DNA from: Escherichia coli
Lineage (GTDB): Bacteria; Pseudomonadota; Gammaproteobacteria; Enterobacterales; Enterobacteriaceae
Assembly: GCF_051903065.1 (NCBI RefSeq)
Contig: NZ_CP178438.1
Length of the DNA: 64,000 nt
Reading direction: 5' to 3' (one strand)
Below the pieces are notes generated by a model. It was not told the origin of the DNA and searched no databases. It saw only the letters and a list, made by a program, of their open reading frames with translations. Position numbers and translations under genes: made by a program. Shown here in pieces: positions 44,351 to 55,101 of the stretch (position 1 is the stretch's first letter; the number at the start of each line of letters is the position of its first letter).

Positions 44351-44404
44351 TCCTGAACTGCACCCCAAATGTTGGACATAATCTGACATCTGAAGGTGCA
44401 GTTT

Positions 44405-44926
44405 ATGAAACATTCATTTGAAGTAAAACTTGCCGCTGTAAATCATTACCTGGCCGGTCATGCAGGCATCATTTCTACGGCAAAACTCTTTCAACTTTCT
44501 CACACCAGCCTCTCACACTGGATTAATCTTTTTCTTCTTCACGGTCCTCAGGCACTGGATTGCAGACACAAGCGTAGCTATTCTCCTGAAGATAAACTTT
44601 GCGTGGTTCTTTATGCTCTCGGGCATTCTGAGTCTCTACCCCGGGTAGCTGCCCGGTTTAACATTCCCAGCCACAACATGGTTAAAAACTGGATAAAAGG
44701 CTACCGCAAATCTGGTAATGAGGCCTTTATCAGGCGCAGGAAGGAGAAAAGCATGACCCGTTCTGATGATACCCATGAAAACGAGGCAAACATGACGCCG
44801 GAAGAGATGAAGAATGAGCTGCGTTATCTTCGCGCAGAAAATGCATATCTGAAAGCCATGCAGGAGCATCTCCTGGAAAAAAAGCGCCAGGAGCTGGAGA
44901 AAAAACGAAAGTCATCCAGAACCTGA
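44405..44926 (+). CDS. IS150-like transposase OrfA (HTH), 173 aa
   Basis: Start at MKHSFEVKLAAVNHY; C-terminal leucine-zipper-like region; an A6 run (44900-44905) near the 3' end is the probable -1 frameshift site. Confidence 0.75.
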   Translation: MKHSFEVKLAAVNHYLAGHAGIISTAKLFQLSHTSLSHWINLFLLHGPQALDCRHKRSYSPEDKLCVVLYALGHSESLPRVAARFNIPSHNMVKNWIKGYRKSGNEAFIRRRKEKSMTRSDDTHENEANMTPEEMKNELRYLRAENAYLKAMQEHLLEKKRQELEKKRKSSRT

Positions 44927-45030
44927 AGTGCGGACACTGCCAGTCTGACCTGTTAAAGGCTGCAGGGCTGGCCAGAAGCACGCTGTACTACCAGCTGTCA
45001 CTGCAGAAGGCTAAGGACAAGTATGCTGAT

Positions 45031-45774
<744 letters not shown>

Positions 45775-45871: not shown

Positions 45872-46924
45872 TCAGGCAATAGTAATTTTGCTATCGAGAT
45901 AAACGTCCTGCACGGCGTTAATCAGTTTCACGCCGTCAGCCATCGATTTCTTGAACGCCTTACGTCCAAGAATCAGCCCCATTCCGCCAGCGCGTTTGTT
46001 GATAACCGCAGTACGCACTGCATCGCTGAGGTCAGTTTCACCGCCTGCAGCACCACCGGAGTTTATCAACCCGGCCCGGCCCATATAGCAGTTAGCTAAC
46101 TGATAACGCACCAGATCAATCGGGTTTTCGCTGGTTAACTTGCTGTACACGCGATCGTCGGTATAACCGTAATTAATCGCTTTATAGCCGCCGTTATTTT
46201 CCGCCATTTTTTGTTTGACGATATCTGCACCTATGGTTGCTGCCAGATGGTTCGCCTGACCAGTCAGGTCGGCGGAAACATGGTAATCAACGCCATCTTT
46301 CTTAAAGGCGGAGTTACGCAAATAGGCCCACAGCACTGTCACCATGCCCAGCTCGTGCGCACGTTCAAAAGCCGCAGAAATTTCTTCAATCTGGCGACGT
46401 GACTCTTCCGAGCCAAAATAGATAGTCGCACCAACCGCCACCGCGCCCATGTTGAAGGCCTGCTCCACGCTGGCATACAGCGTTTGATCGTAGGTATTCG
46501 GGTAACTTAGCGTCTCGTTGTGATTAAGTTTGACGAGAAATGGAATGCGATGCGCATAGCGCCGCGATACCGACGCCAGCACGCCGTAAGTTGATGCCAC
46601 ACAGTTACAGCCCGCTTCGATCGCCAGTTCAACAATGTTTTTCGGGTCAAAGTAGAGCGGGTTAGCGGCAAATGAAGCTCCGGCAGAGTGCTCAACGCCC
46701 TGGTCAACGGGCAGAATAGAAAGATATCCTGTGCCAGCCAGACGCCCGGTGTTGTACAACGTCTGCATATTACGTAACACCGCTGGCGGGCGATTATTGT
46801 CAATCATCACGCGGTCTACGTAGTCATGTCCGGGGAGATAAAGCTGGTCAGAAGGAATAGTCATACAACGGTGCTGTAAAAGGTTGTCGGCGTCTTTGCC
46901 AAGCAACTGCGCAATATCTGTCAT
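45872..46924 (-). CDS. fbaB: Fructose-bisphosphate aldolase class I, 350 aa
   Basis: Start taken at [10 protein letters not shown]; DeoC/FbaB-type class I aldolase. Confidence 0.85.
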
Positions 46925-47180
46925 TACTATGCTCCCGTAAATTCCGATTGGATATCGGCTATGGATTGTCCTGGCCCGCCATTTGCGGGCAATCATAATC
47001 CTGGTCGTTACGGGCGAGTTTTTCCATCTTTTGGATGTTTTTTCAGCGTTTTCTGTTGGCTCGATTCATCAGAAAAAATGTTAGCGCGGTCAAGTTTTCA
47101 CCGCAAAGGTATTTAAAAGGTATTATTAAGTGGTATTGTCATCGCGTACCTTACATTACCTGTCATGAAGGAATTAAAAG

Positions 47181-48458
47181 ATGAAAACAACAGCAAAGCT
47201 GTCGTTCATGATGTTTGTTGAATGGTTTATCTGGGGCGCGTGGTTTGTGCCATTGTGGTTGTGGTTAAGTAAAAGCGGTTTTAGTGCCGGAGAAATTGGC
47301 TGGTCGTATGCCTGCACAGCCATTGCGGCGATCCTGTCGCCAATTCTGGTTGGCTCCATCACTGACCGCTTTTTCTCGGCGCAAAAAGTGCTGGCGGTAT
47401 TGATGTTCGCTGGTGCGGTGCTGATGTATTTCGCCGCGCAACAGACCACTTTTGCCGGGTTCTTCCCGTTACTGCTGGCCTACTCGCTAACCTATATGCC
47501 GACCATTGCGCTGACTAACAGCATCGCTTTTGCCAACGTGCCGGATGTTGAGCGTGATTTCCCGCGCATTCGTGTGATGGGCACTATCGGCTGGATTGCC
47601 TCCGGTCTGGCATGTGGTTTCTTGCCGCAAATGCTGGGGTATGCCGATATCTCACCGACTAACATCCCGCTGCTGATTACCGCCGGAAGTTCTGCTCTGC
47701 TCGGTGTGTTTGCGTTTTTCCTGCCCGACACGCCACCAAAAAGCACCGGCAAAATGGACATTAAAGTCATGCTCGGCCTGGATGCGCTGATCCTGCTGCG
47801 CGATAAAAACTTCCTCGTCTTTTTCTTCTGTTCATTCCTGTTTGCGATGCCACTGGCGTTCTATTACATCTTTGCCAACGGTTATCTGACCGAAGTTGGC
47901 ATGAAAAACGCCACCGGCTGGATGACGCTCGGCCAGTTCTCTGAAATATTCTTTATGCTGGCATTGCCGTTTTTCACTAAACGCTTTGGTATCAAAAAGG
48001 TATTATTGCTTGGTCTGATCACCGCTGCGATCCGCTATGGCTTCTTTATTTACGGTAGTGCGGATGAATATTTCACCTACGCGTTACTGTTCCTCGGTAT
48101 TTTGCTTCACGGCGTAAGTTACGATTTTTACTACGTTACCGCTTACATCTATGTCGATAAAAAAGCCCCCGTGCATATGCGTACCGCCGCGCAGGGGCTG
48201 ATCACGCTCTGCTGCCAGGGCTTCGGCAGTTTGCTCGGCTATCGTCTTGGCGGTGTGATGATGGAAAAGATGTTCGCTTATCAGGAACCGGTAAACGGAC
48301 TGACTTTCAACTGGTCCGGGATGTGGACTTTCGGCGCGGTGATGATTGCCATTATCGCCGTGCTTTTCATGATTTTTTTCCGCGAATCCGACAACGAAAT
48401 TACGGCTATCAAGGTCGATGATCGCGATATTGCGTTGACACAAGGGGAAGTTAAATGA
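47181..48458 (+). CDS. yegT: MFS nucleoside transporter (NupG/XapB family) YegT, 425 aa
   Basis: 12-TM MFS protein, first gene of a yegT-yegU-yegV operon with overlapping stops and starts. Confidence 0.8.
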   Translation: MKTTAKLSFMMFVEWFIWGAWFVPLWLWLSKSGFSAGEIGWSYACTAIAAILSPILVGSITDRFFSAQKVLAVLMFAGAVLMYFAAQQTTFAGFFPLLLAYSLTYMPTIALTNSIAFANVPDVERDFPRIRVMGTIGWIASGLACGFLPQMLGYADISPTNIPLLITAGSSALLGVFAFFLPDTPPKSTGKMDIKVMLGLDALILLRDKNFLVFFFCSFLFAMPLAFYYIFANGYLTEVGMKNATGWMTLGQFSEIFFMLALPFFTKRFGIKKVLLLGLITAAIRYGFFIYGSADEYFTYALLFLGILLHGVSYDFYYVTAYIYVDKKAPVHMRTAAQGLITLCCQGFGSLLGYRLGGVMMEKMFAYQEPVNGLTFNWSGMWTFGAVMIAIIAVLFMIFFRESDNEITAIKVDDRDIALTQGEVK

Positions 48459-49459
48459 AAACAGAACGTATTCTCGGTGCTCTTTATGGGCAGGCGTTAG
48501 GGGATGCGATGGGGATGCCCTCCGAGCTTTGGCCACGCAGCCGCGTTAAAGCACACTTTGGCTGGATTGACCGTTTTCTGCCTGGACCAAAGGAGAATAA
48601 CGCGGCCTGTTATTTTAACCGCGCCGAATTCACCGACGATACCTCGATGGCGCTGTGTCTGGCGGATGCGTTGCTGGAACGTAAAGGCAAGATCGATCCG
48701 GATCTGATTGGGCGTAATATTCTCGACTGGGCGCTGCGTTTCGACGCCTTTAATAAAAACGTACTAGGTCCGACCTCGAAGATTGCGCTTAACGCCATTC
48801 GCGACGGTAAACCCGTTGCTGAACTGGAAAACAATGGCGTGACAAACGGCGCAGCGATGCGCGTCTCGCCATTAGGTTGTTTGCTTCCGACGCACGATGT
48901 TGATTCCTTTATTGATGATGTGGCGCTGGCGTCCAGCCCGACCCATAAATCCGATCTGGCGGTTGCAGGCGCGGTAGTCATCGCATGGGCGATTTCTCGT
49001 GCCATTGACGGAGAAAGCTGGTCAGCGATTGTTGATTCACTGCCTTCAATTGCCCGACATGCCCAGCAAAAACGCATCACTACCTTCAGCGCCTCACTGG
49101 CGGCACGGCTGGAGATTGCGCTGAAAATTGTGCGCAATGCCGACGGCACCGAATCCGCCAGCGAACAGCTTTACCAGGTCGTTGGCGCAGGTACCAGCAC
49201 TATTGAGTCCGTTCCGTGCGCCATTGCGCTGGTTGAACTGGCACAAACCGACCCGAATCGCTGCGCCGTCCTGTGCGCTAACCTTGGCGGCGACACAGAC
49301 ACCATCGGCGCTATGGCAACGGCGATTTGCGGCGCGTTGCATGGCGTTAACGCTATCGATCCTGCATTAAAGGCGGAACTGGATGCGGTAAATCAGCTTG
49401 ATTTCAACCGCTATGCCACAGCGCTGGCGAAATATCGTCAACAACGGGAGGCGGTATGA
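48455..49459 (+). CDS. yegU: ADP-ribosylglycohydrolase-family protein YegU, 334 aa
   Basis: 334-aa ORF; ARH-family resemblance from translation. Confidence 0.75.
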   Translation: MKTERILGALYGQALGDAMGMPSELWPRSRVKAHFGWIDRFLPGPKENNAACYFNRAEFTDDTSMALCLADALLERKGKIDPDLIGRNILDWALRFDAFNKNVLGPTSKIALNAIRDGKPVAELENNGVTNGAAMRVSPLGCLLPTHDVDSFIDDVALASSPTHKSDLAVAGAVVIAWAISRAIDGESWSAIVDSLPSIARHAQQKRITTFSASLAARLEIALKIVRNADGTESASEQLYQVVGAGTSTIESVPCAIALVELAQTDPNRCAVLCANLGGDTDTIGAMATAICGALHGVNAIDPALKAELDAVNQLDFNRYATALAKYRQQREAV

Positions 49460-50421
49460 GCGGCGCTCGATTACACACGCTGCTGCCTGAATTAACCTCG
49501 CGTCAGCCGGTGATGGTCGTCGGCGCGGCGGTCATTGATGTGATCGCCGACGCTTATGCCCTCCCCTGGCGTGGGTGCGATATCGAACTGAAACAGCAGA
49601 GCGTTAACGTTGGCGGCTGCGCACTGAATATTGCCGTGGCGTTAAAGCGCCTCGGCATCGAAGCGGGTAATGCCTTGCCGCTCGGTCAGGGCGTGTGGGC
49701 GGAGATTATTCGCAACCGGATGGCAAAAGAGGGCTTAATCAGCCTGATCGATAACGCCGAAGGTGATAACGGCTGGTGTCTGGCGCTGGTTGAGCCGGAT
49801 GGCGAACGCACTTTTATGTCATTCAGCGGTGTGGAAAATCAGTGGAATCGCCAGTGGCTGGCGCGATTAACCGTTGCGCCTGGCAGCCTGCTCTATTTTT
49901 CCGGTTATCAACTGGCCTCGCCCTGCGGCGAATTATTAGTGGAATGGCTGGAAAAGCTGCAAGACGTGACGCCGTTTATCGATTTTGGCCCACGTATTGG
50001 CGATATCCCGGATGCATTACTGGCGCGGATCATGGCCTGTCGACCTTTAGTGTCACTCAATCGTCAAGAGGCTGAGATTGCCGCCGAACGTTTTGCTTTA
50101 TCCGCAGAGATAACAACACTTGGCAAGCAATGGCAGGAGAAATTTGCCACGCCGTTGATCATTCGTCTCGATAAAGAGGGCGCATGGTATTTCAGCAACG
50201 ACGCTTCTGGCTGCATTCCGGCATTTCCCACGCAAGTTGTCGACACCATTGGGGCGGGCGACAGTCATGCAGGTGGCGTACTTGCCGGGCTGGCCTCTGG
50301 TCTGCCACTGGCGGATGCCGTATTACTGGGCAATGCAGTGGCGTCGTGGGTTGTCGGGCATCGCGGCGGTGATTGTGCGCCAACGCGCGAGGAACTACTC
50401 CTCGCACACAAAAACGTATAG
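49456..50421 (+). CDS. yegV: PfkB-family sugar/nucleoside kinase YegV, 321 aa
   Basis: C-terminal PfkB signature DTIGAGDSHAGG. Confidence 0.8.
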   Translation: MSGARLHTLLPELTSRQPVMVVGAAVIDVIADAYALPWRGCDIELKQQSVNVGGCALNIAVALKRLGIEAGNALPLGQGVWAEIIRNRMAKEGLISLIDNAEGDNGWCLALVEPDGERTFMSFSGVENQWNRQWLARLTVAPGSLLYFSGYQLASPCGELLVEWLEKLQDVTPFIDFGPRIGDIPDALLARIMACRPLVSLNRQEAEIAAERFALSAEITTLGKQWQEKFATPLIIRLDKEGAWYFSNDASGCIPAFPTQVVDTIGAGDSHAGGVLAGLASGLPLADAVLLGNAVASWVVGHRGGDCAPTREELLLAHKNV

Positions 50422-51141
50422 ATCGCTGCGACAGTGGCTGATGCTGTATTCAATAGGCCGTTGCTGTTGGTCAAGCGCCACTTGCTTGATCACCAGCACC
50501 GGTATTTTGCTATCTAACTGAATATGTGACTGAAACTCGGCATCTGGCATCCGGGCGCTAACGCGGGAACGTGTACGTTGTGGGTAAATGTGCTGGCTGC
50601 GGAAATAGTCATAAAGAGAAATTCCGATGGCATCAACATCATGAATTAAATGCGCCGGAACCCACGATTCCTCAATCGATACCGCTTCTTCATCGACATA
50701 GCGAATACGCTTAAGCAAAAAGACATCACTTCCCGCTTCGACCGCAAGCTGCTGCGCGACTTCTTCGGGACATTTCACGACACGCTTGTTAACCCATAGC
50801 GTATCGGGCTTTTTCCCGCGCAATACCACCTGCTGAGAAAAACCTCGCGCTTCTTTCAACGAGTATTCGAAGATGTTGTTGATCTGCGTGCCGTAACCAC
50901 GCGAACGCGTCACCACGCCCTCTTCTTCCAGCGCCTGCATCGCCTTGCGCACCGTAATGCGCGAAACGCCGGTTAACTGACTTAAATCACGCTCACCGGG
51001 CAAAATATTGCCATGCTCCAGCACCCCGCTGCGCACGGCATTTTTTACCGTTTCGGCAAACTTAATATAAAGCGGCGTGTTATCCGCCGCTAAAATACGC
51101 TCGTTCAGTTGGGCAATCAGCTGGGTATGCGCTTGTTCCAT
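50395..51141 (-). CDS. yegW: GntR-family (HutC-like) transcriptional regulator YegW, 248 aa
   Basis: N-terminal GntR winged HTH (SGVLEHGNILPGERDLSQLTGVSRITVRKA) plus UTRA-like effector domain; convergent with yegV. Confidence 0.8.
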   Translation of the reverse strand: MEQAHTQLIAQLNERILAADNTPLYIKFAETVKNAVRSGVLEHGNILPGERDLSQLTGVSRITVRKAMQALEEEGVVTRSRGYGTQINNIFEYSLKEARGFSQQVVLRGKKPDTLWVNKRVVKCPEEVAQQLAVEAGSDVFLLKRIRYVDEEAVSIEESWVPAHLIHDVDAIGISLYDYFRSQHIYPQRTRSRVSARMPDAEFQSHIQLDSKIPVLVIKQVALDQQQRPIEYSISHCRSDLYVFVCEE

Positions 51142-51192
51142 TTGTCTTTTTCCTGCCAGGGAGTCTGGTGGGAGTATATCACTGCTTCTTAT

Positions 51193-52020
51193 TTAAGGCG
51201 TTTCTTTAATCCCATCAACGAATGCCTGCAACTCCTCCACCGTGCCATTAAATACATTAAAATCCACCGGACCATTGATGCCATCTACCTGTCCACGGTC
51301 GGAATGCTGCCAGAAACGCCAGGCCATGCCGTCATTGTCCGGACGACGTTGATAGTAGTGAGCCACCCACCACGGATATTCATTGAAATAGCCCGCCAGA
51401 TTGGTGTGATAAAAAACGGCTCCTGAGTAAATAATCGGCTTTTTTCCCGTACTTTTTTCGACCATTTTTAGCCACTGACTTACCCGCTTGCGTAATTCTT
51501 TTGCCGATAATTTTCCCCGTTCCTCTACGTCCAGCACGGCAGGGAAATCGCCTTGTGAGAAATCCACCGTTTGCAGAAATAATCGCGCCTGAACAAGCGC
51601 TGCTACCGACGGGGAGAAATAATGATACGCCCCGCGCAGCAGGCCATTTTCGCGGCTTAGTTGCCAGTTACGCGAAAAATAGGGGTCCACCAGCTTTTCG
51701 CCTTCCGTCGCCTTGATAAAGGCAAATTGTAAGCGGATACCGTTATCGCGCATTTTTGCCACCCGCTGCCAGTCGATCCGCTCCTGCCAGCGCGAAACAT
51801 CTATTCCGTGAATGGTGTAACTGGCAGGAATACGAATAGCGAAAGATTTAACCGGGCGATAACCGTAGAAGTGGATGTAGTCTGTAATCTGAACTGCTGT
51901 CGAATAGAAAAAATTCACCGTCTGACGCGGATAAATTGCAACGATGGAAATTAGCCCAAGAGCGCATAATAGAGCGGTGAGTTTTTTTCGACTGGTAATT
52001 CTTAGCTGCATTGGTTTCAT
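51193..52020 (-). CDS. yegX: Glycoside hydrolase family 25 (lysozyme-like) protein YegX, ~272-275 aa
   Basis: N-terminal signal-anchor; GH25-like motif (GIDVSRWQ). Alternative start MQLRITS at 52011. Confidence 0.75.
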   Translation of the reverse strand: MKPMQLRITSRKKLTALLCALGLISIVAIYPRQTVNFFYSTAVQITDYIHFYGYRPVKSFAIRIPASYTIHGIDVSRWQERIDWQRVAKMRDNGIRLQFAFIKATEGEKLVDPYFSRNWQLSRENGLLRGAYHYFSPSVAALVQARLFLQTVDFSQGDFPAVLDVEERGKLSAKELRKRVSQWLKMVEKSTGKKPIIYSGAVFYHTNLAGYFNEYPWWVAHYYQRRPDNDGMAWRFWQHSDRGQVDGINGPVDFNVFNGTVEELQAFVDGIKETP

Positions 52021-52075: not shown

Positions 52076-52876
52076 TCACCACCAGGCGTGGAAGTGGTGA
52101 ACCGGACCAATACCGTGACCAACTTCCAGCGTGTCGGCCTGTGCTAACGCCGATGAAAGCCAGCTTTTTGCCTCCTGTACGGTGTCAGCCCAGTTTGTAT
52201 GGCGCGGGCGTAGTGCAGCCAACGCCGCAGAGAGCGTACAACCAGTGCCGTGGGTGTTTTTGGTCATAATGCGCGGTGCAGTAAATCGTTGTTCTCCCTC
52301 ACGAGTAAACAGCCAGTCCGGGCTTTGCTCATCATCCAGATGACCACCTTTCATTAGCACTGCGCCACAGCCCATCGCCAACAGCGATCGCCCTTGTTCC
52401 AGCATTTCCTGTTCGGTGCGCACGTGTGGCGCGTCGAGCAAGGCGGCTGCTTCGGGCAAGTTTGGCGTTATTAATGAAACCTGTGGCAATAATCGACTGC
52501 GTAGCGTGGCAACTGCCGAAGGTGAAAGCAGTGGGTCGCCGCTTTTTGCCAGCATAACGGTGTCGAGTACCACGTTTTGGATCTGATAACGTTGCAACCG
52601 TTCTGCCACCGCTTCAACAATATCGGTTTCCGCCAACATACCGATTTTAGTGGTATCGATTCGCACATCGCTGAACACCGAATCGAGCTGGGCGGCGACA
52701 AAATCAGGCTCAATGCGATACACCGACTGTACGCCACGGGTATTTTGCGCCACCAGTGCAGTAATAACTGAGCAACCATAAGCGCCAAGTGCCGAGAAGG
52801 TTTTAAGATCGGCCTGAATCCCCGCACCACCACTCGGATCAGTACCGGCAATCGTCAGAGCGTTAATTCGTTTCAT
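52076..52876 (-). CDS. thiD: Hydroxymethylpyrimidine/phosphomethylpyrimidine kinase, 266 aa
   Basis: PfkB-type kinase with GTGC motif; overlaps the thiM stop. Confidence 0.9.
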
Positions 52877-53661
52877 GCCTGCACCTCCTGCGTCAATTGC
52901 CAGAGCGCATCAAGGAAATGTGGAACAAAACTGCCTGGCCCCTCGCTTCTGGCGACTGCGCGTTCTCCGGCTTGTTTCATCCAGTGACAGGCAGATGCGA
53001 CATTTTCCAGCATATCGCCTGGTAACGCACAGCAGGCAGCGATAACTGCCGATAATGCACAGCCAGTTCCTACCACTTTGGCCATTAACGGATCGCCGCC
53101 GTGAATGCCAACGGTGCGACGACCATCGGTAACATAATCCACCTCGCCAGTGACCACGACGATTGCGCCAGTTTCCCGTGCCAGTGTTTGTGCAGCGGGT
53201 ATCGCGTTAGCTGCGGCGTCAGTGGTATCCACTCCCCGTCCACAATTAGCAACGCCAGCTAATGCCATGATTTCCGAAGCATTACCACGTATCGCTGCCG
53301 GTTTAAAAGATAAAAGTTCATGACAAAAATGGCGGCGATAATCGAGCGCACCAATCGCTACTGGATCAAGCGTCCAGGGGGTTTGAGAGCTTTTTGCTTG
53401 CTCAACGGCGGCACGCATCGCCTGTGCGCGTGGCTGCGTCAGCGTGCCAACGTTAATCAACAAGGCACTGGCGATAGCCGCAAACTGACTGGCCTCTTCG
53501 GTTTCGATAACCATCGCTGGCGATGCACCGAGCGCCAGCAAGGTATTGGCAGTAAAGGTTTGCACCACATCGTTGGTCATGCAGTGTACAAGAGGGGAAT
53601 GTTGGTGAAAAAGGTGTAACGTGTGCGCAGATTGCGCGGAACTCAGCAGGTCGACTTGCAT
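52873..53661 (-). CDS. thiM: Hydroxyethylthiazole kinase, 262 aa
   Basis: 262-aa ORF directly downstream of a TPP riboswitch. Confidence 0.9.
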
Positions 53662-53883: not shown

Positions 53884-54156
53884 TTATTTGATATAAGAAT
53901 CCAGCACCTTCAGAACGACATCCAGATCTTCTTCACGCTTTAGTTCATCGCCCTGGTGAACAATGTGTTCTGTCAGATGACCTTTAATCACTTCCCGCAT
54001 CAGGCCGTTTACCGCGCCACGGATAGCAGCAATCTGTTGTAAAACTGCAGCGCATTCGTGCGGCTCGTCGAGCATTTTCTTGAGCGCCACGACCTGGCCC
54101 TGAATCTTACTGGCACGCGCTTTCAGTTTCTGTTTATCACGGATTGTATGAGACAT
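53884..54156 (-). CDS. rcnR: Ni/Co-responsive repressor RcnR (CsoR/RcnR family), 90 aa
   Basis: 90-aa all-helical ORF divergent from rcnA. Confidence 0.85.
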
Positions 54157-54204
54157 GGCAACACCTGGTTAACAAGAATATGAAAAATCATAGCACTATT
54201 AATC

Positions 54205-54239
54205 TACTGGGGGGTAGTATCAGGTACTGGGGGGGAGTA
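54205..54239. promoter_or_regulatory. Two RcnR operator sites (TACT-G6-N-AGTA)
   Basis: TACTGGGGGGTAGTA (54205-54219) and TACTGGGGGGGAGTA (54225-54239) in the rcnR-rcnA intergenic region. Confidence 0.7.
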
Positions 54240-54276
54240 GAATAAGATTGCCGAATTAATACTAAGAATTATTATC

Positions 54277-55101
54277 ATGACCGAATTTACAACTCTTCTT
54301 CAGCAAGGAAACGCCTGGTTCTTCATCCCCAGCGCCATCTTACTTGGTGCGCTTCATGGCCTGGAACCAGGGCACTCAAAAACGATGATGGCGGCGTTTA
54401 TCATCGCCATCAAAGGCACCATTAAACAGGCGGTGATGCTCGGACTGGCAGCAACCATTTCACATACTGCGGTGGTCTGGTTGATTGCCTTTGGCGGGAT
54501 GGTGATCAGCAAGCGCTTTACTGCTCAATCAGCAGAACCGTGGCTCCAGCTGATTTCCGCAGTGATCATTATTAGCACCGCGTTCTGGATGTTCTGGCGT
54601 ACCTGGCGCGGCGAACGCAACTGGCTGGAGAATATGCACGAGCATGATCATGAGCATCATCACCACGATCACGAAGATCACCAAGACCATGGACATCATC
54701 ACCATCACGAACATGGCGAGTATCAGGATGCCCATGCACGAGCCCATGCCAATGACATTAAACGACGCTTTGATGGTAGAGAGGTCACCAACTGGCAAAT
54801 TTTGCTATTTGGCTTAACCGGTGGCCTTATCCCCTGCCCGGCAGCAATTACCGTGCTGTTGATTTGCATTCAGTTGAAAGCCCTGACACTGGGCGCAACA
54901 CTGGTCGTCAGTTTCAGCATTGGCCTGGCGTTAACGCTGGTCACCGTAGGCGTTGGCGCAGCAATCAGCGTTCAGCAGGTCGCAAAACGCTGGAGCGGAT
55001 TTAACACTCTCGCTAAACGCGCCCCCTATTTTTCCAGTCTGTTGATTGGCTTAGTCGGTGTGTATATGGGCGTACATGGATTCATGGGCATAATGCGATA
55101 A
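54277..55101 (+). CDS. rcnA: Ni/Co efflux permease RcnA, 274 aa
   Basis: Membrane protein with a His-rich cytoplasmic loop (HEHDHEHHHHDHEDHQDHGHHHHHEHGE). Confidence 0.9.
   Translation: MTEFTTLLQQGNAWFFIPSAILLGALHGLEPGHSKTMMAAFIIAIKGTIKQAVMLGLAATISHTAVVWLIAFGGMVISKRFTAQSAEPWLQLISAVIIISTAFWMFWRTWRGERNWLENMHEHDHEHHHHDHEDHQDHGHHHHHEHGEYQDAHARAHANDIKRRFDGREVTNWQILLFGLTGGLIPCPAAITVLLICIQLKALTLGATLVVSFSIGLALTLVTVGVGAAISVQQVAKRWSGFNTLAKRAPYFSSLLIGLVGVYMGVHGFMGIMR

Follow-up and report, generated by a model that had tools for sequence, protein, structure and literature searches.

A possible route for the uptake, phosphorylation and cleavage of a non-canonical riboside encoded by the yegTUV operon of Escherichia coli

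Background

The pseudouridine operon psuK-psuG-psuT (yeiC-yeiN-yeiM) of E. coli illustrates how an intact riboside can be broken down after uptake. It has a dedicated permease, a PfkB kinase which phosphorylates the intact riboside at the 5' position, and a glycosidase which converts the product to ribose-5-phosphate and base. In Salmonella one operon, STM4065-4066-4067, encodes a transporter, a PfkB kinase and a putative protein of the ADP-ribosylglycohydrolase (ARH) fold; the kinase phosphorylates aminoimidazole riboside, and persistence in the pig gut depends on the ARH gene, STM4067 (PMC3161100). The present analysis concerns yegT, yegU and yegV of E. coli, which encode a nucleoside-type transporter, an ARH-fold protein and a PfkB kinase, together with the adjoining genes yegW and yegX. 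They lie at positions 47181-52020 of a stretch of 64,000 nt from contig NZ_CP178438.1 (assembly GCF_051903065.1), the whole of which is referred to as the window and to which all positions apply unless a locus label is given. yegT, yegU and yegV are core K-12 genes which are without an assigned biochemical function yet have a dedicated repressor.

To our knowledge, every characterised member of the ARH fold splits off ADP-ribose, either from proteins or from derivatives of ADP-ribose, and all of the known substrates carry a 5''-phosphate. The characterised enzymes cleave alpha-linked ribose, at ribose C1''. Repressors with a UTRA domain typically sense phosphorylated sugars, and a GntR-type regulator of STM4065-67 is reportedly described in the primary stm4066 paper. 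For yegTUV the regulator is YegW, renamed GgaR by Saito et al. (2024), who found a single genomic target by chromatin immunoprecipitation on microarrays (ChIP-chip), namely the spacer between fbaB and yegT with a weaker site inside yegT (PMC10819704). In vitro, GgaR shifts a 190-bp probe from upstream of yegT (probe-2) and, at higher protein concentrations, also probe-5, which covers nucleotides 571-869 of the yegT open reading frame (ORF). The yegTUV transcript is undetectable in the wild type and is increased about 30-fold by deletion of ggaR; the deletion strain, whose growth on M9 glucose is poor, accumulates two to three times more glycogen. ADP-glucose frees GgaR from DNA in gel shifts, glucose and ADP do not, and no binding motif for GgaR is given (PMC10819704). 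A crystal structure of YegT is available as 8ZOJ (Xiao et al. 2025). The regulator and the operon are already known from the literature, and the locus is both annotated and partly characterised.

We give an even chance to the reading that yegTUV is a repressor-controlled operon for the uptake of a non-canonical riboside, its 5'-phosphorylation, and its cleavage to ribose-5-phosphate and an aglycone. The proposal that YegU and YegV form a widespread enzyme pair, in which a member of the ARH fold works as a small-molecule ribotide glycohydrolase, is judged a little short of even. What is added here is comparative: fusions of the two enzymes in both orders, displacement of the transporter, exclusion of yegX, an operator candidate for both of the published GgaR sites, and patterns of conserved and replaced residues. 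This evidence sharpens the function of yegTUV into a testable model.

Results

Word-indexed and genome-collection searches with YegU returned only Enterobacterales (78-98% identity), and distant relatives were obtained from an exhaustive search of cluster representatives, which gave 7032 relatives with E values up to 1e-3. Ten long homologues, of 600-760 aa, were scanned for domains. Nine of them are fusions of ARH and PfkB domains, four in the order PfkB-ARH and five in the order ARH-PfkB. Because the fusions occur in both orders, the domain arrangement is strong evidence that the ARH and PfkB enzymes catalyse successive steps.

Gene neighbourhoods were compared in 11 non-enteric lineages. 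A PfkB gene is adjacent to, or fused with, the YegU-type gene in all 11; in locus L081 the neighbour is unannotated and aligns as YegV-like. Beside the four best-matching homologues (L094, L084, L089 and the fusion P0215) the kinases share 31-38% identity with YegV, and their E values reach down to 4e-72. A transporter adjoins the pair in nine of the 11 lineages, belonging to the NCS1 class in six, the energy-coupling factor (ECF) class in two and the ATP-binding cassette (ABC) class in two, L086 having both NCS1 and ECF. The enteric loci use an NHS transporter, to which NCS1, ECF and ABC transporters are unrelated. The pair is often fused, is spread over bacteria with a locus GC content from 31% to 77%, and has transporters from four unrelated classes at its side. 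Five of the distant lineages also have a GntR/UTRA regulator. Accessory genes in these loci include a PNP/UDP-type phosphorylase, a DeoB-like (phosphopentomutase-like) gene together with DeoC, an isochorismatase-family gene (once) and extra ARH paralogues; the phosphorylase, the DeoB-like gene and DeoC point to nucleoside or pentose metabolism, and no glg (glycogen) genes were seen in the 11 neighbourhoods. Such a pattern is what marks a conserved pathway for the uptake of a ribose-containing small molecule, in which the transporter has been replaced by non-orthologous ones. A full-text search of the literature found no paper joining 'ADP-ribosylglycohydrolase' with 'PfkB', and with 'ribokinase' or 'GntR' it returned only work on Bacteroides ribose utilisation and the GgaR paper.

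In some distant loci a second ARH paralogue, longer or divergent, stands beside the pair (L091 1815-3209, 464 aa; L098 1916-4063, 715 aa; L099 7511-8500, 329 aa). In those organisms deglycosylation may take two steps, or the range of substrates may be broader.

A scan of one genome per species gave 80 loci, all from Enterobacterales, with YegU 78-98% identical, and linkage in these was determined by tblastn with the proteins of the window. yegU is linked to yegT in 79 of them, to yegV in 79 and to yegW in 77; the arrangement is constant, and most of the few gaps fall at the ends of contigs. In Pectobacterium yegTUVW is kept and the neighbours fbaB and thiMD are absent. In contrast, yegX occurs in only four of the 80 loci, all Escherichia, and elsewhere yegW directly abuts thiD. 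As linkage is kept across species while yegX is found only in Escherichia, the functional unit is yegTUV with yegW. Salmonella, too, has its own yegTUVW (locus L024). Within E. coli, at least 80% of the region 47181-52020 is carried by 5420 of 5426 complete genomes, and in three complete genomes it is 100% identical.

An earlier reading of the window, made from the sequence only, had assigned the five genes to families, and all of these assignments were borne out by the ORF listing and profile scans (Table 1); the RefSeq names agree with them. It had also taken yegTUV as one operon with a convergent regulator of the GntR/HutC type. At both junctions the start and stop codons overlap as ATGA, with a ribosome-binding site ahead of each overlap, and a Northern blot shows a single transcript of 3.3 kb (PMC10819704), so that one operon is supported by the sequence and the published transcript alike. 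YegW has a GntR domain (PF00392, E 3e-16) and a UTRA domain (PF07702, E 2e-36), which place it in the HutC subfamily, and it scores below the cut-off on every equivalog. Binding of YegW at the yegT promoter, which had been suggested as a check, was already on record from ChIP-chip, gel shifts, Northern blotting and reverse-transcription quantitative PCR (PMC10819704). The 3' ends of yegV and yegW overlap convergently, an arrangement retained in almost every one of the 77 enterobacterial loci with yegW, and the two genes are among the overlapping-transcript pairs listed in PMC12288877. No terminator-like hairpin was found 3' of the yegV stop codon. Transcripts reading on from a derepressed yegTUV would run antisense to yegW and, speculatively, could give positive feedback. 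No anomaly of GC content was found over yegTUV or yegX.

YegV matches PF00294 (E 5e-56), and its N-terminal GG dipeptide (G52-G53) and the C-terminal catalytic motif DTIGAGDSH align to those of RbsK, as is characteristic of the PfkB/ribokinase superfamily. It does not belong to the ribokinase equivalogs, scoring 83 bits on TIGR02152 (cut-off 300) and 62 bits on NF008353 (cut-off 341); comparison with the E. coli ribokinase itself gives 55 bits, and the pseudouridine kinase model only 19 bits against a cut-off of 540. The ribose contacts of RbsK, which from its structure we take to be N14, D16, G42, K43, N46, E143 and D255, are only partly retained. In the alignment D16, G42, N46 and D255 (the Asp of GAGD) are kept in YegV, and N14, K43 and E143 are replaced by V26, C54 and Ala. 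The YegV clade also has motifs of its own, DNGW and GAGD(S/T)H. In a review on enzyme-function prediction for uncharacterised proteins, YegV is still counted among the kinases without characterisation.

YegU is a member of the ARH family (PF03747, E 2e-66, 285 of 287 profile positions). Residues D17, E24, T60-D61-D62-T63, H164 and D280-T-D282-T283 align to the active site of ARH3, and over 95% of 106 homologues retain each of these motifs, with the exception of E24. H164 is the counterpart in the alignment of ARH3 His182 and is invariant in 105 of the 106; His182 lies next to the phosphates of ADP-ribose and is needed for its binding (PMC5727137). YegU is outside the DraG equivalog TIGR02662, with 80.7 bits against a cut-off of 337, and outside the Tri1 equivalog NF041672, with 70.1 bits against 490. 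Its closest solved relative is the uncharacterised protein MJ1187 (1T5J, E 2e-29), and no solved structure of YegU or YegV was found. The genomic context argues for a small phosphoriboside as the probable substrate of YegU.

YegT is covered by PF03825 over all 400 profile positions (1-400, E 1e-183) and is a member of the NHS family, scoring 653 bits on TIGR00889 (cut-off 446). It is about 99% identical to the protein in 8ZOJ. The residues which contact ribose in NupG, namely R136, T140 and E264, are identical in YegT, and those which contact the base differ (PMC8042404). Our alignment of YegT with NupG confirms that the ribose triad is kept and the base pocket changed (PIRIWGTIG against PRIRVMGTIG, ISE against FSE); the GxxxD motif of transmembrane helix 10 (TM10) is present as GVSYD. 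The roles of the triad and of GxxxD as a protonation motif are taken from PMC8042404 and PMC11979927. In isothermal titration calorimetry (ITC) YegT did not bind uridine, adenosine, cytidine or guanosine (Xiao et al. 2025), and in another study, of transport, it did not take up uridine, cytidine, xanthosine or gemcitabine. Taken together, the retained ribose triad, the changed base pocket and the negative assays make a non-canonical riboside the most likely substrate of YegT.

The regions upstream of yegT from 80 enterobacterial loci were aligned. One block, flanked by diverged sequence, is near-invariant, and it falls inside the 190-bp probe bound by GgaR; it consists of GGTAT-type repeats and is the candidate operator in Table 1. 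After it come the conserved CTGTCATG and the ribosome-binding site of yegT. A promoter-like match (TTCACC, an 18-nt spacer, TATTAT; 9 of 12 matches) is present upstream of yegT. Because its -10 hexamer overlaps the conserved GGTAT repeats, the sequence suggests that GgaR represses by occlusion of the -10 region.

A weaker copy of the block lies within yegT itself. It matches 29 of the 38 bases of 47108-47145 and is inside probe-5, and since it lies in this second bound probe it is a candidate which explains the weaker second site of GgaR. The best match in 1000 codon-permuted yegT ORFs was 23, and no other match of at least 26 of 38 was found in the 64-kb window.

Further upstream, half-sites conserved in the alignment (consensus 'TGttA....G.TCAaa') resemble a site for CRP, and a CRP peak from SELEX (systematic evolution of ligands by exponential enrichment) has been reported in the fbaB-yegT spacer (PMC3105977). 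As the E. coli sequence has three mismatches to the consensus, it is kept as a weak candidate for the site behind this peak; a scan of the window with the CRP consensus gave 22 matches with 26.6 expected, which is the level of chance.

A search for repeats of the GGTAT type around GntR/UTRA genes in distant loci turned up other half-sites instead. Palindromes of GACATC are present in L091 and L097. At L094 5851-6000, the spacer between a divergent GntR/UTRA gene and an ARH-NCS1-PfkB operon holds AACTGGACTTAAACTGGATTTA, which is arranged in tandem with a spacing of about 11 nt, like the GGTAT repeats of E. coli, with a different half-site. As distant loci carry different half-sites, the operator sequence appears to be lineage-specific, and the case of L094 suggests that regulator and operator co-vary. 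The YegU homologue of L094 is 57% identical and the locus has a GC content of 39%.

Table 1. Features of the yegTUV locus and its surroundings in the window
Feature	Position	Strand	Length	Basis	Assignment or remark
yegT	47181-48458	+	425 aa	ORF listing	Major facilitator superfamily (MFS) proton symporter of the NHS family (predicted), proposed for a non-canonical riboside
yegU	48455-49459	+	334 aa	ORF listing	ARH-fold hydrolase, proposed phosphoriboside glycohydrolase
yegV	49456-50421	+	321 aa	ORF listing	PfkB-family kinase, proposed riboside 5'-kinase
yegW (ggaR)	50395-51141	-	248 aa	ORF listing	GntR/HutC-type (UTRA) repressor of yegTUV
yegX	51193-52020	-	275 aa	ORF listing	Membrane-anchored GH25 muramidase-like protein
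yegT/yegU overlap	48455-48458		4 nt	ORF coordinates	ATGA
yegU/yegV overlap	49456-49459		4 nt	ORF coordinates	ATGA
yegV/yegW overlap	50395-50421		27 nt	ORF coordinates	Convergent, 3' ends
Candidate GgaR operator	47105-47151	+		Upstream alignment	AAAGGTATTTAAAAGGTATTAT-N5-TGGTA-N10-GTACC
Promoter-like -10	47121-47126	+		Consensus scan	TATTAT, inside second GGTAT repeat
Conserved element with the ribosome-binding site of yegT	47160-47175	+		Conserved in upstream alignment	CTGTCATG + AAGGA
Second, weaker operator-like copy	47988-48025	+			yegT ORF nt 808-845
Candidate CRP-like site	47079-47094	unassigned		Conserved in upstream alignment	TGTTA-N6-TCAAG, fbaB-yegT spacer
IS1397	44396-45753				IS3 family, between gatY and fbaB
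fbaB	45872-46996		374 aa	Longest ORF	From an upstream ATG
thiMD	52076-53661
rcnR-rcnA-like pair	53884-55101		90 aa, 274 aa		Downstream of thiMD

YegX has a complete GH25 domain (PF01183, E 4e-54, profile positions 1-180 of 180) and a hydrophobic N-terminal anchor at residues 13-31, and it is 35-40% identical to GH25 endolysins of phages. The anchored, lysozyme-like protein described next to the operon by the sequence-only reading is therefore there, but it is not a part of the system and was rejected as a member on linkage. YegX is a predicted muramidase and an Escherichia-specific neighbour, and should not be used to deduce the pathway.

In the enteric loci thiD adjoins yegW in 73 of 80, and thiM is found there in 72 of 80. 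Neighbours related to thiamine recur in other loci, a TenA gene being situated 1.1 kb from an ARH-NCS1-PfkB cluster (L096 11365-12192), and the paralogous Salmonella kinase feeds the thiamine precursor aminoimidazole ribotide (AIR). The thiamine-gene neighbourhood may be a coincidence; Pectobacterium is without the thiMD linkage. Downstream of thiMD are an ORF for a small repressor resembling CsoR/RcnR and one for a membrane protein whose long loop is rich in His, which from their sequences look like rcnR-rcnA (nickel/cobalt efflux).

On the other side of the locus is IS1397, with helix-turn-helix domains in orfA and an rve integrase core in orfB; fbaB stands between it and the yegT promoter. 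The complete gatY-IS-fbaB junction is present in only four of the 5426 complete E. coli genomes, so the insertion marks a rare lineage. Homology supports a start for fbaB at MTDIAQLL, near 46924, which gives a protein of 350 aa in place of the longest ORF, and the real fbaB-yegT spacer is consequently about 256 bp, not 184 bp.

Discussion

On the favoured reading, YegT would bring in the riboside by proton symport, with the ribose held by an Arg/Thr/Glu triad as in NupG and the aglycone by the altered pocket. YegV would phosphorylate the still intact riboside at the 5'-OH of its ribose, and the two-metal ARH site of YegU would then hydrolyse the bond at ribose C1, giving ribose-5-phosphate and the free aglycone. 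GgaR would bind the GGTAT-repeat block over the -10 hexamer, and more weakly the copy within yegT, and would be freed by an effector containing a phosphoribosyl group. Of these elements, we infer the order of the reactions, the 5'-phosphate, the products, the exact bases of the operator and the role of ADP-glucose as a mimic. Since the ribose cleaved by characterised ARH enzymes is alpha-linked, an alpha-riboside is a possible substrate, as is some other non-nucleoside ribosyl compound available in the gut. The importance of STM4067 in the pig gut, and the truncations which yegT picks up in host-restricted S. Typhi, point towards a nutrient which is encountered in the intestine. Loss of ggaR is among the larger fitness defects listed in a screen of uropathogenic E. 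coli in systemic infection.

The sequence-only reading had called the cluster nucleoside-type, with a substrate not obvious from sequence. The name holds for the family of the transporter, and fails in that YegT neither binds nor transports canonical nucleosides; as to the substrate, the literature assigns none. That reading was to be given up if the pathway had been assigned already. The regulator, its effector and the structure of YegT are indeed published, but the biochemical pathway is not assigned. Its general idea of uptake and phosphorylation of a ribosylated compound is kept in the favoured reading. Its wording can be taken to put hydrolysis before phosphorylation, and the evidence leans, by inference, towards the kinase acting first. 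The residue pattern of YegV, the invariant H164 of YegU and the riboside kinase of Salmonella favour this order, by alignment and by analogy.

Several points weigh against the favoured reading. The kinase-first order itself depends on residue patterns and analogy, and the residues replaced in YegV (N14, K43 and E143 of RbsK) presumably ring the anomeric side of ribose, which is a lead only. Since the position of E24 in YegU is Glu in 61 and Gln in 28 of the 106 homologues, the chemistry may differ within the YegU family. There is no published enzyme assay for YegU or YegV. The copy of the operator within yegT was rejected as a conserved second operator, synonymous sites there not being specially conserved across genera; it is best seen as a feature at the level of Escherichia which rests on the codons for G-I-K-K-V. 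Neither ADP-glucose, which is the sole effector published, nor the glycogen phenotype, the sole phenotype published, follows obviously from a riboside pathway. Finally, the ribose-utilisation loci of Bacteroides pair ARH genes with ribokinases, respond to free ribose and support growth on it, which fits an order with the hydrolase first.

In that order YegU would split the riboside to free ribose and aglycone, and YegV, as a ribokinase, would make ribose-5-phosphate. The Bacteroides loci speak for it, ribokinases come out of the PDB and NCBIfam as the best characterised relatives of YegV, and a fusion of ARH with PfkB would fit either order. The score of YegV lies far under the ribokinase cut-off of TIGR02152, however, and three of the presumed ribose contacts of RbsK are changed. 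The phosphate-side His is invariant in YegU, all ARH substrates known to us have the 5''-phosphate, and E. coli already has RbsK. We regard the hydrolase-first order as unlikely, and prefer phosphorylation of the intact riboside.

A published proposal connects the operon with glycogen: yegTUV would make, import or spare ADP-glucose, and GgaR would sense it for glycogen storage. Its basis is the specific release of GgaR by ADP-glucose in gel shifts, the additional glycogen of the ggaR deletion, and the report of a yegV deletion among low-glycogen mutants (PMC10819704). The proposal has no enzymatic link, and the authors leave the functions of yegTUV to a later study (PMC10819704). The role as effector comes from gel shifts in vitro. 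Glycogen is raised in M9 glucose also, and as this medium has no external ADP-glucose, import cannot explain the rise. The module of ARH, PfkB, transporter and GntR genes is widely found beside nucleoside or pentose genes, and never with glg genes in the 11 contexts. ADP-glucose has, moreover, no ribose C1'' bond of the type cleaved by ARH enzymes, save for the adenine linkage. We consider this explanation improbable, and the effect on glycogen is probably secondary, a result of yegTUV being expressed without control. Because UTRA repressors typically sense phosphorylated sugars and ADP-glucose contains a ribose-5'-phosphate, ADP-glucose may mimic the true effector of GgaR.

It is very improbable that YegU is a protein de-ADP-ribosylase of the DraG, ARH1 or Tri1 type with an incidental linkage to yegT and yegV, since its family membership and complete ARH active-site motif are outweighed by the DraG and Tri1 scores given above, the translational coupling to a permease and a sugar kinase, the PfkB fusions in both orders and the catabolic type of neighbourhood. 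A role in the salvage of ordinary nucleosides, which would duplicate NupG, NupC and XapB, is suggested by the NHS family of YegT and can be given hardly any weight, as it is contradicted by the published binding and transport assays and by base-contact residues unlike those of NupG.

If the favoured reading is true, activity on a small phosphoriboside, in partnership with a fused or neighbouring kinase, would widen the known chemistry of the ARH fold, and many annotations as 'ADP-ribosylglycohydrolase' and 'ribokinase' would need correction. Identification of the substrate would give a function to three y-genes of K-12 and to the gut-persistence gene STM4067 of Salmonella.

Comparison with known systems

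The proposed logic of yegTUV, a kinase followed by a glycosidase, is by analogy that of psuK and psuG. The components are different: the predicted glycosidase YegU has the ARH fold (PF03747) and is not of the PsuG type, YegT is an NHS transporter whereas the psu permease is of the CNT type, and YegV is remote from pseudouridine kinase by its model score. The composition of transporter, PfkB kinase and ARH protein is shared with STM4065-67. YegV matches the structure of STM4066 (1TYY) only at E 2e-5, and orthology with the aminoimidazole riboside kinase was rejected on this ground; because the kinases are so distant, the two gene sets are considered paralogous.

Like ARH3, ARH1, DraG and Tri1, YegU has the ARH fold, the Asp/Thr metal motifs, the Glu position and the phosphate-side His. 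It differs from them in scoring far under the equivalog cut-offs, and in its context, which is an operon for small-molecule uptake with a kinase and not one for protein regulation or toxin immunity. YegT belongs to the same family as NupG and XapB and shares their fold (root-mean-square deviation of 1.57 Å to NupG), the TM10 GxxxD motif and the ribose triad, but its identity is 27%, its base-binding residues are replaced, and no canonical nucleoside is bound or transported. YegW resembles the single-target repressors of the HutC group (NagR, TreR and PhnF type) in its winged helix and UTRA domain, in the position of its gene beside the regulated operon, and in its release by a small phosphorylated ligand. 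It differs from them in its equivalog scores, which are under the cut-offs, and in its candidate operator, which is made of tandem GGTAT direct repeats with one inverted pair and not of a single short palindrome.

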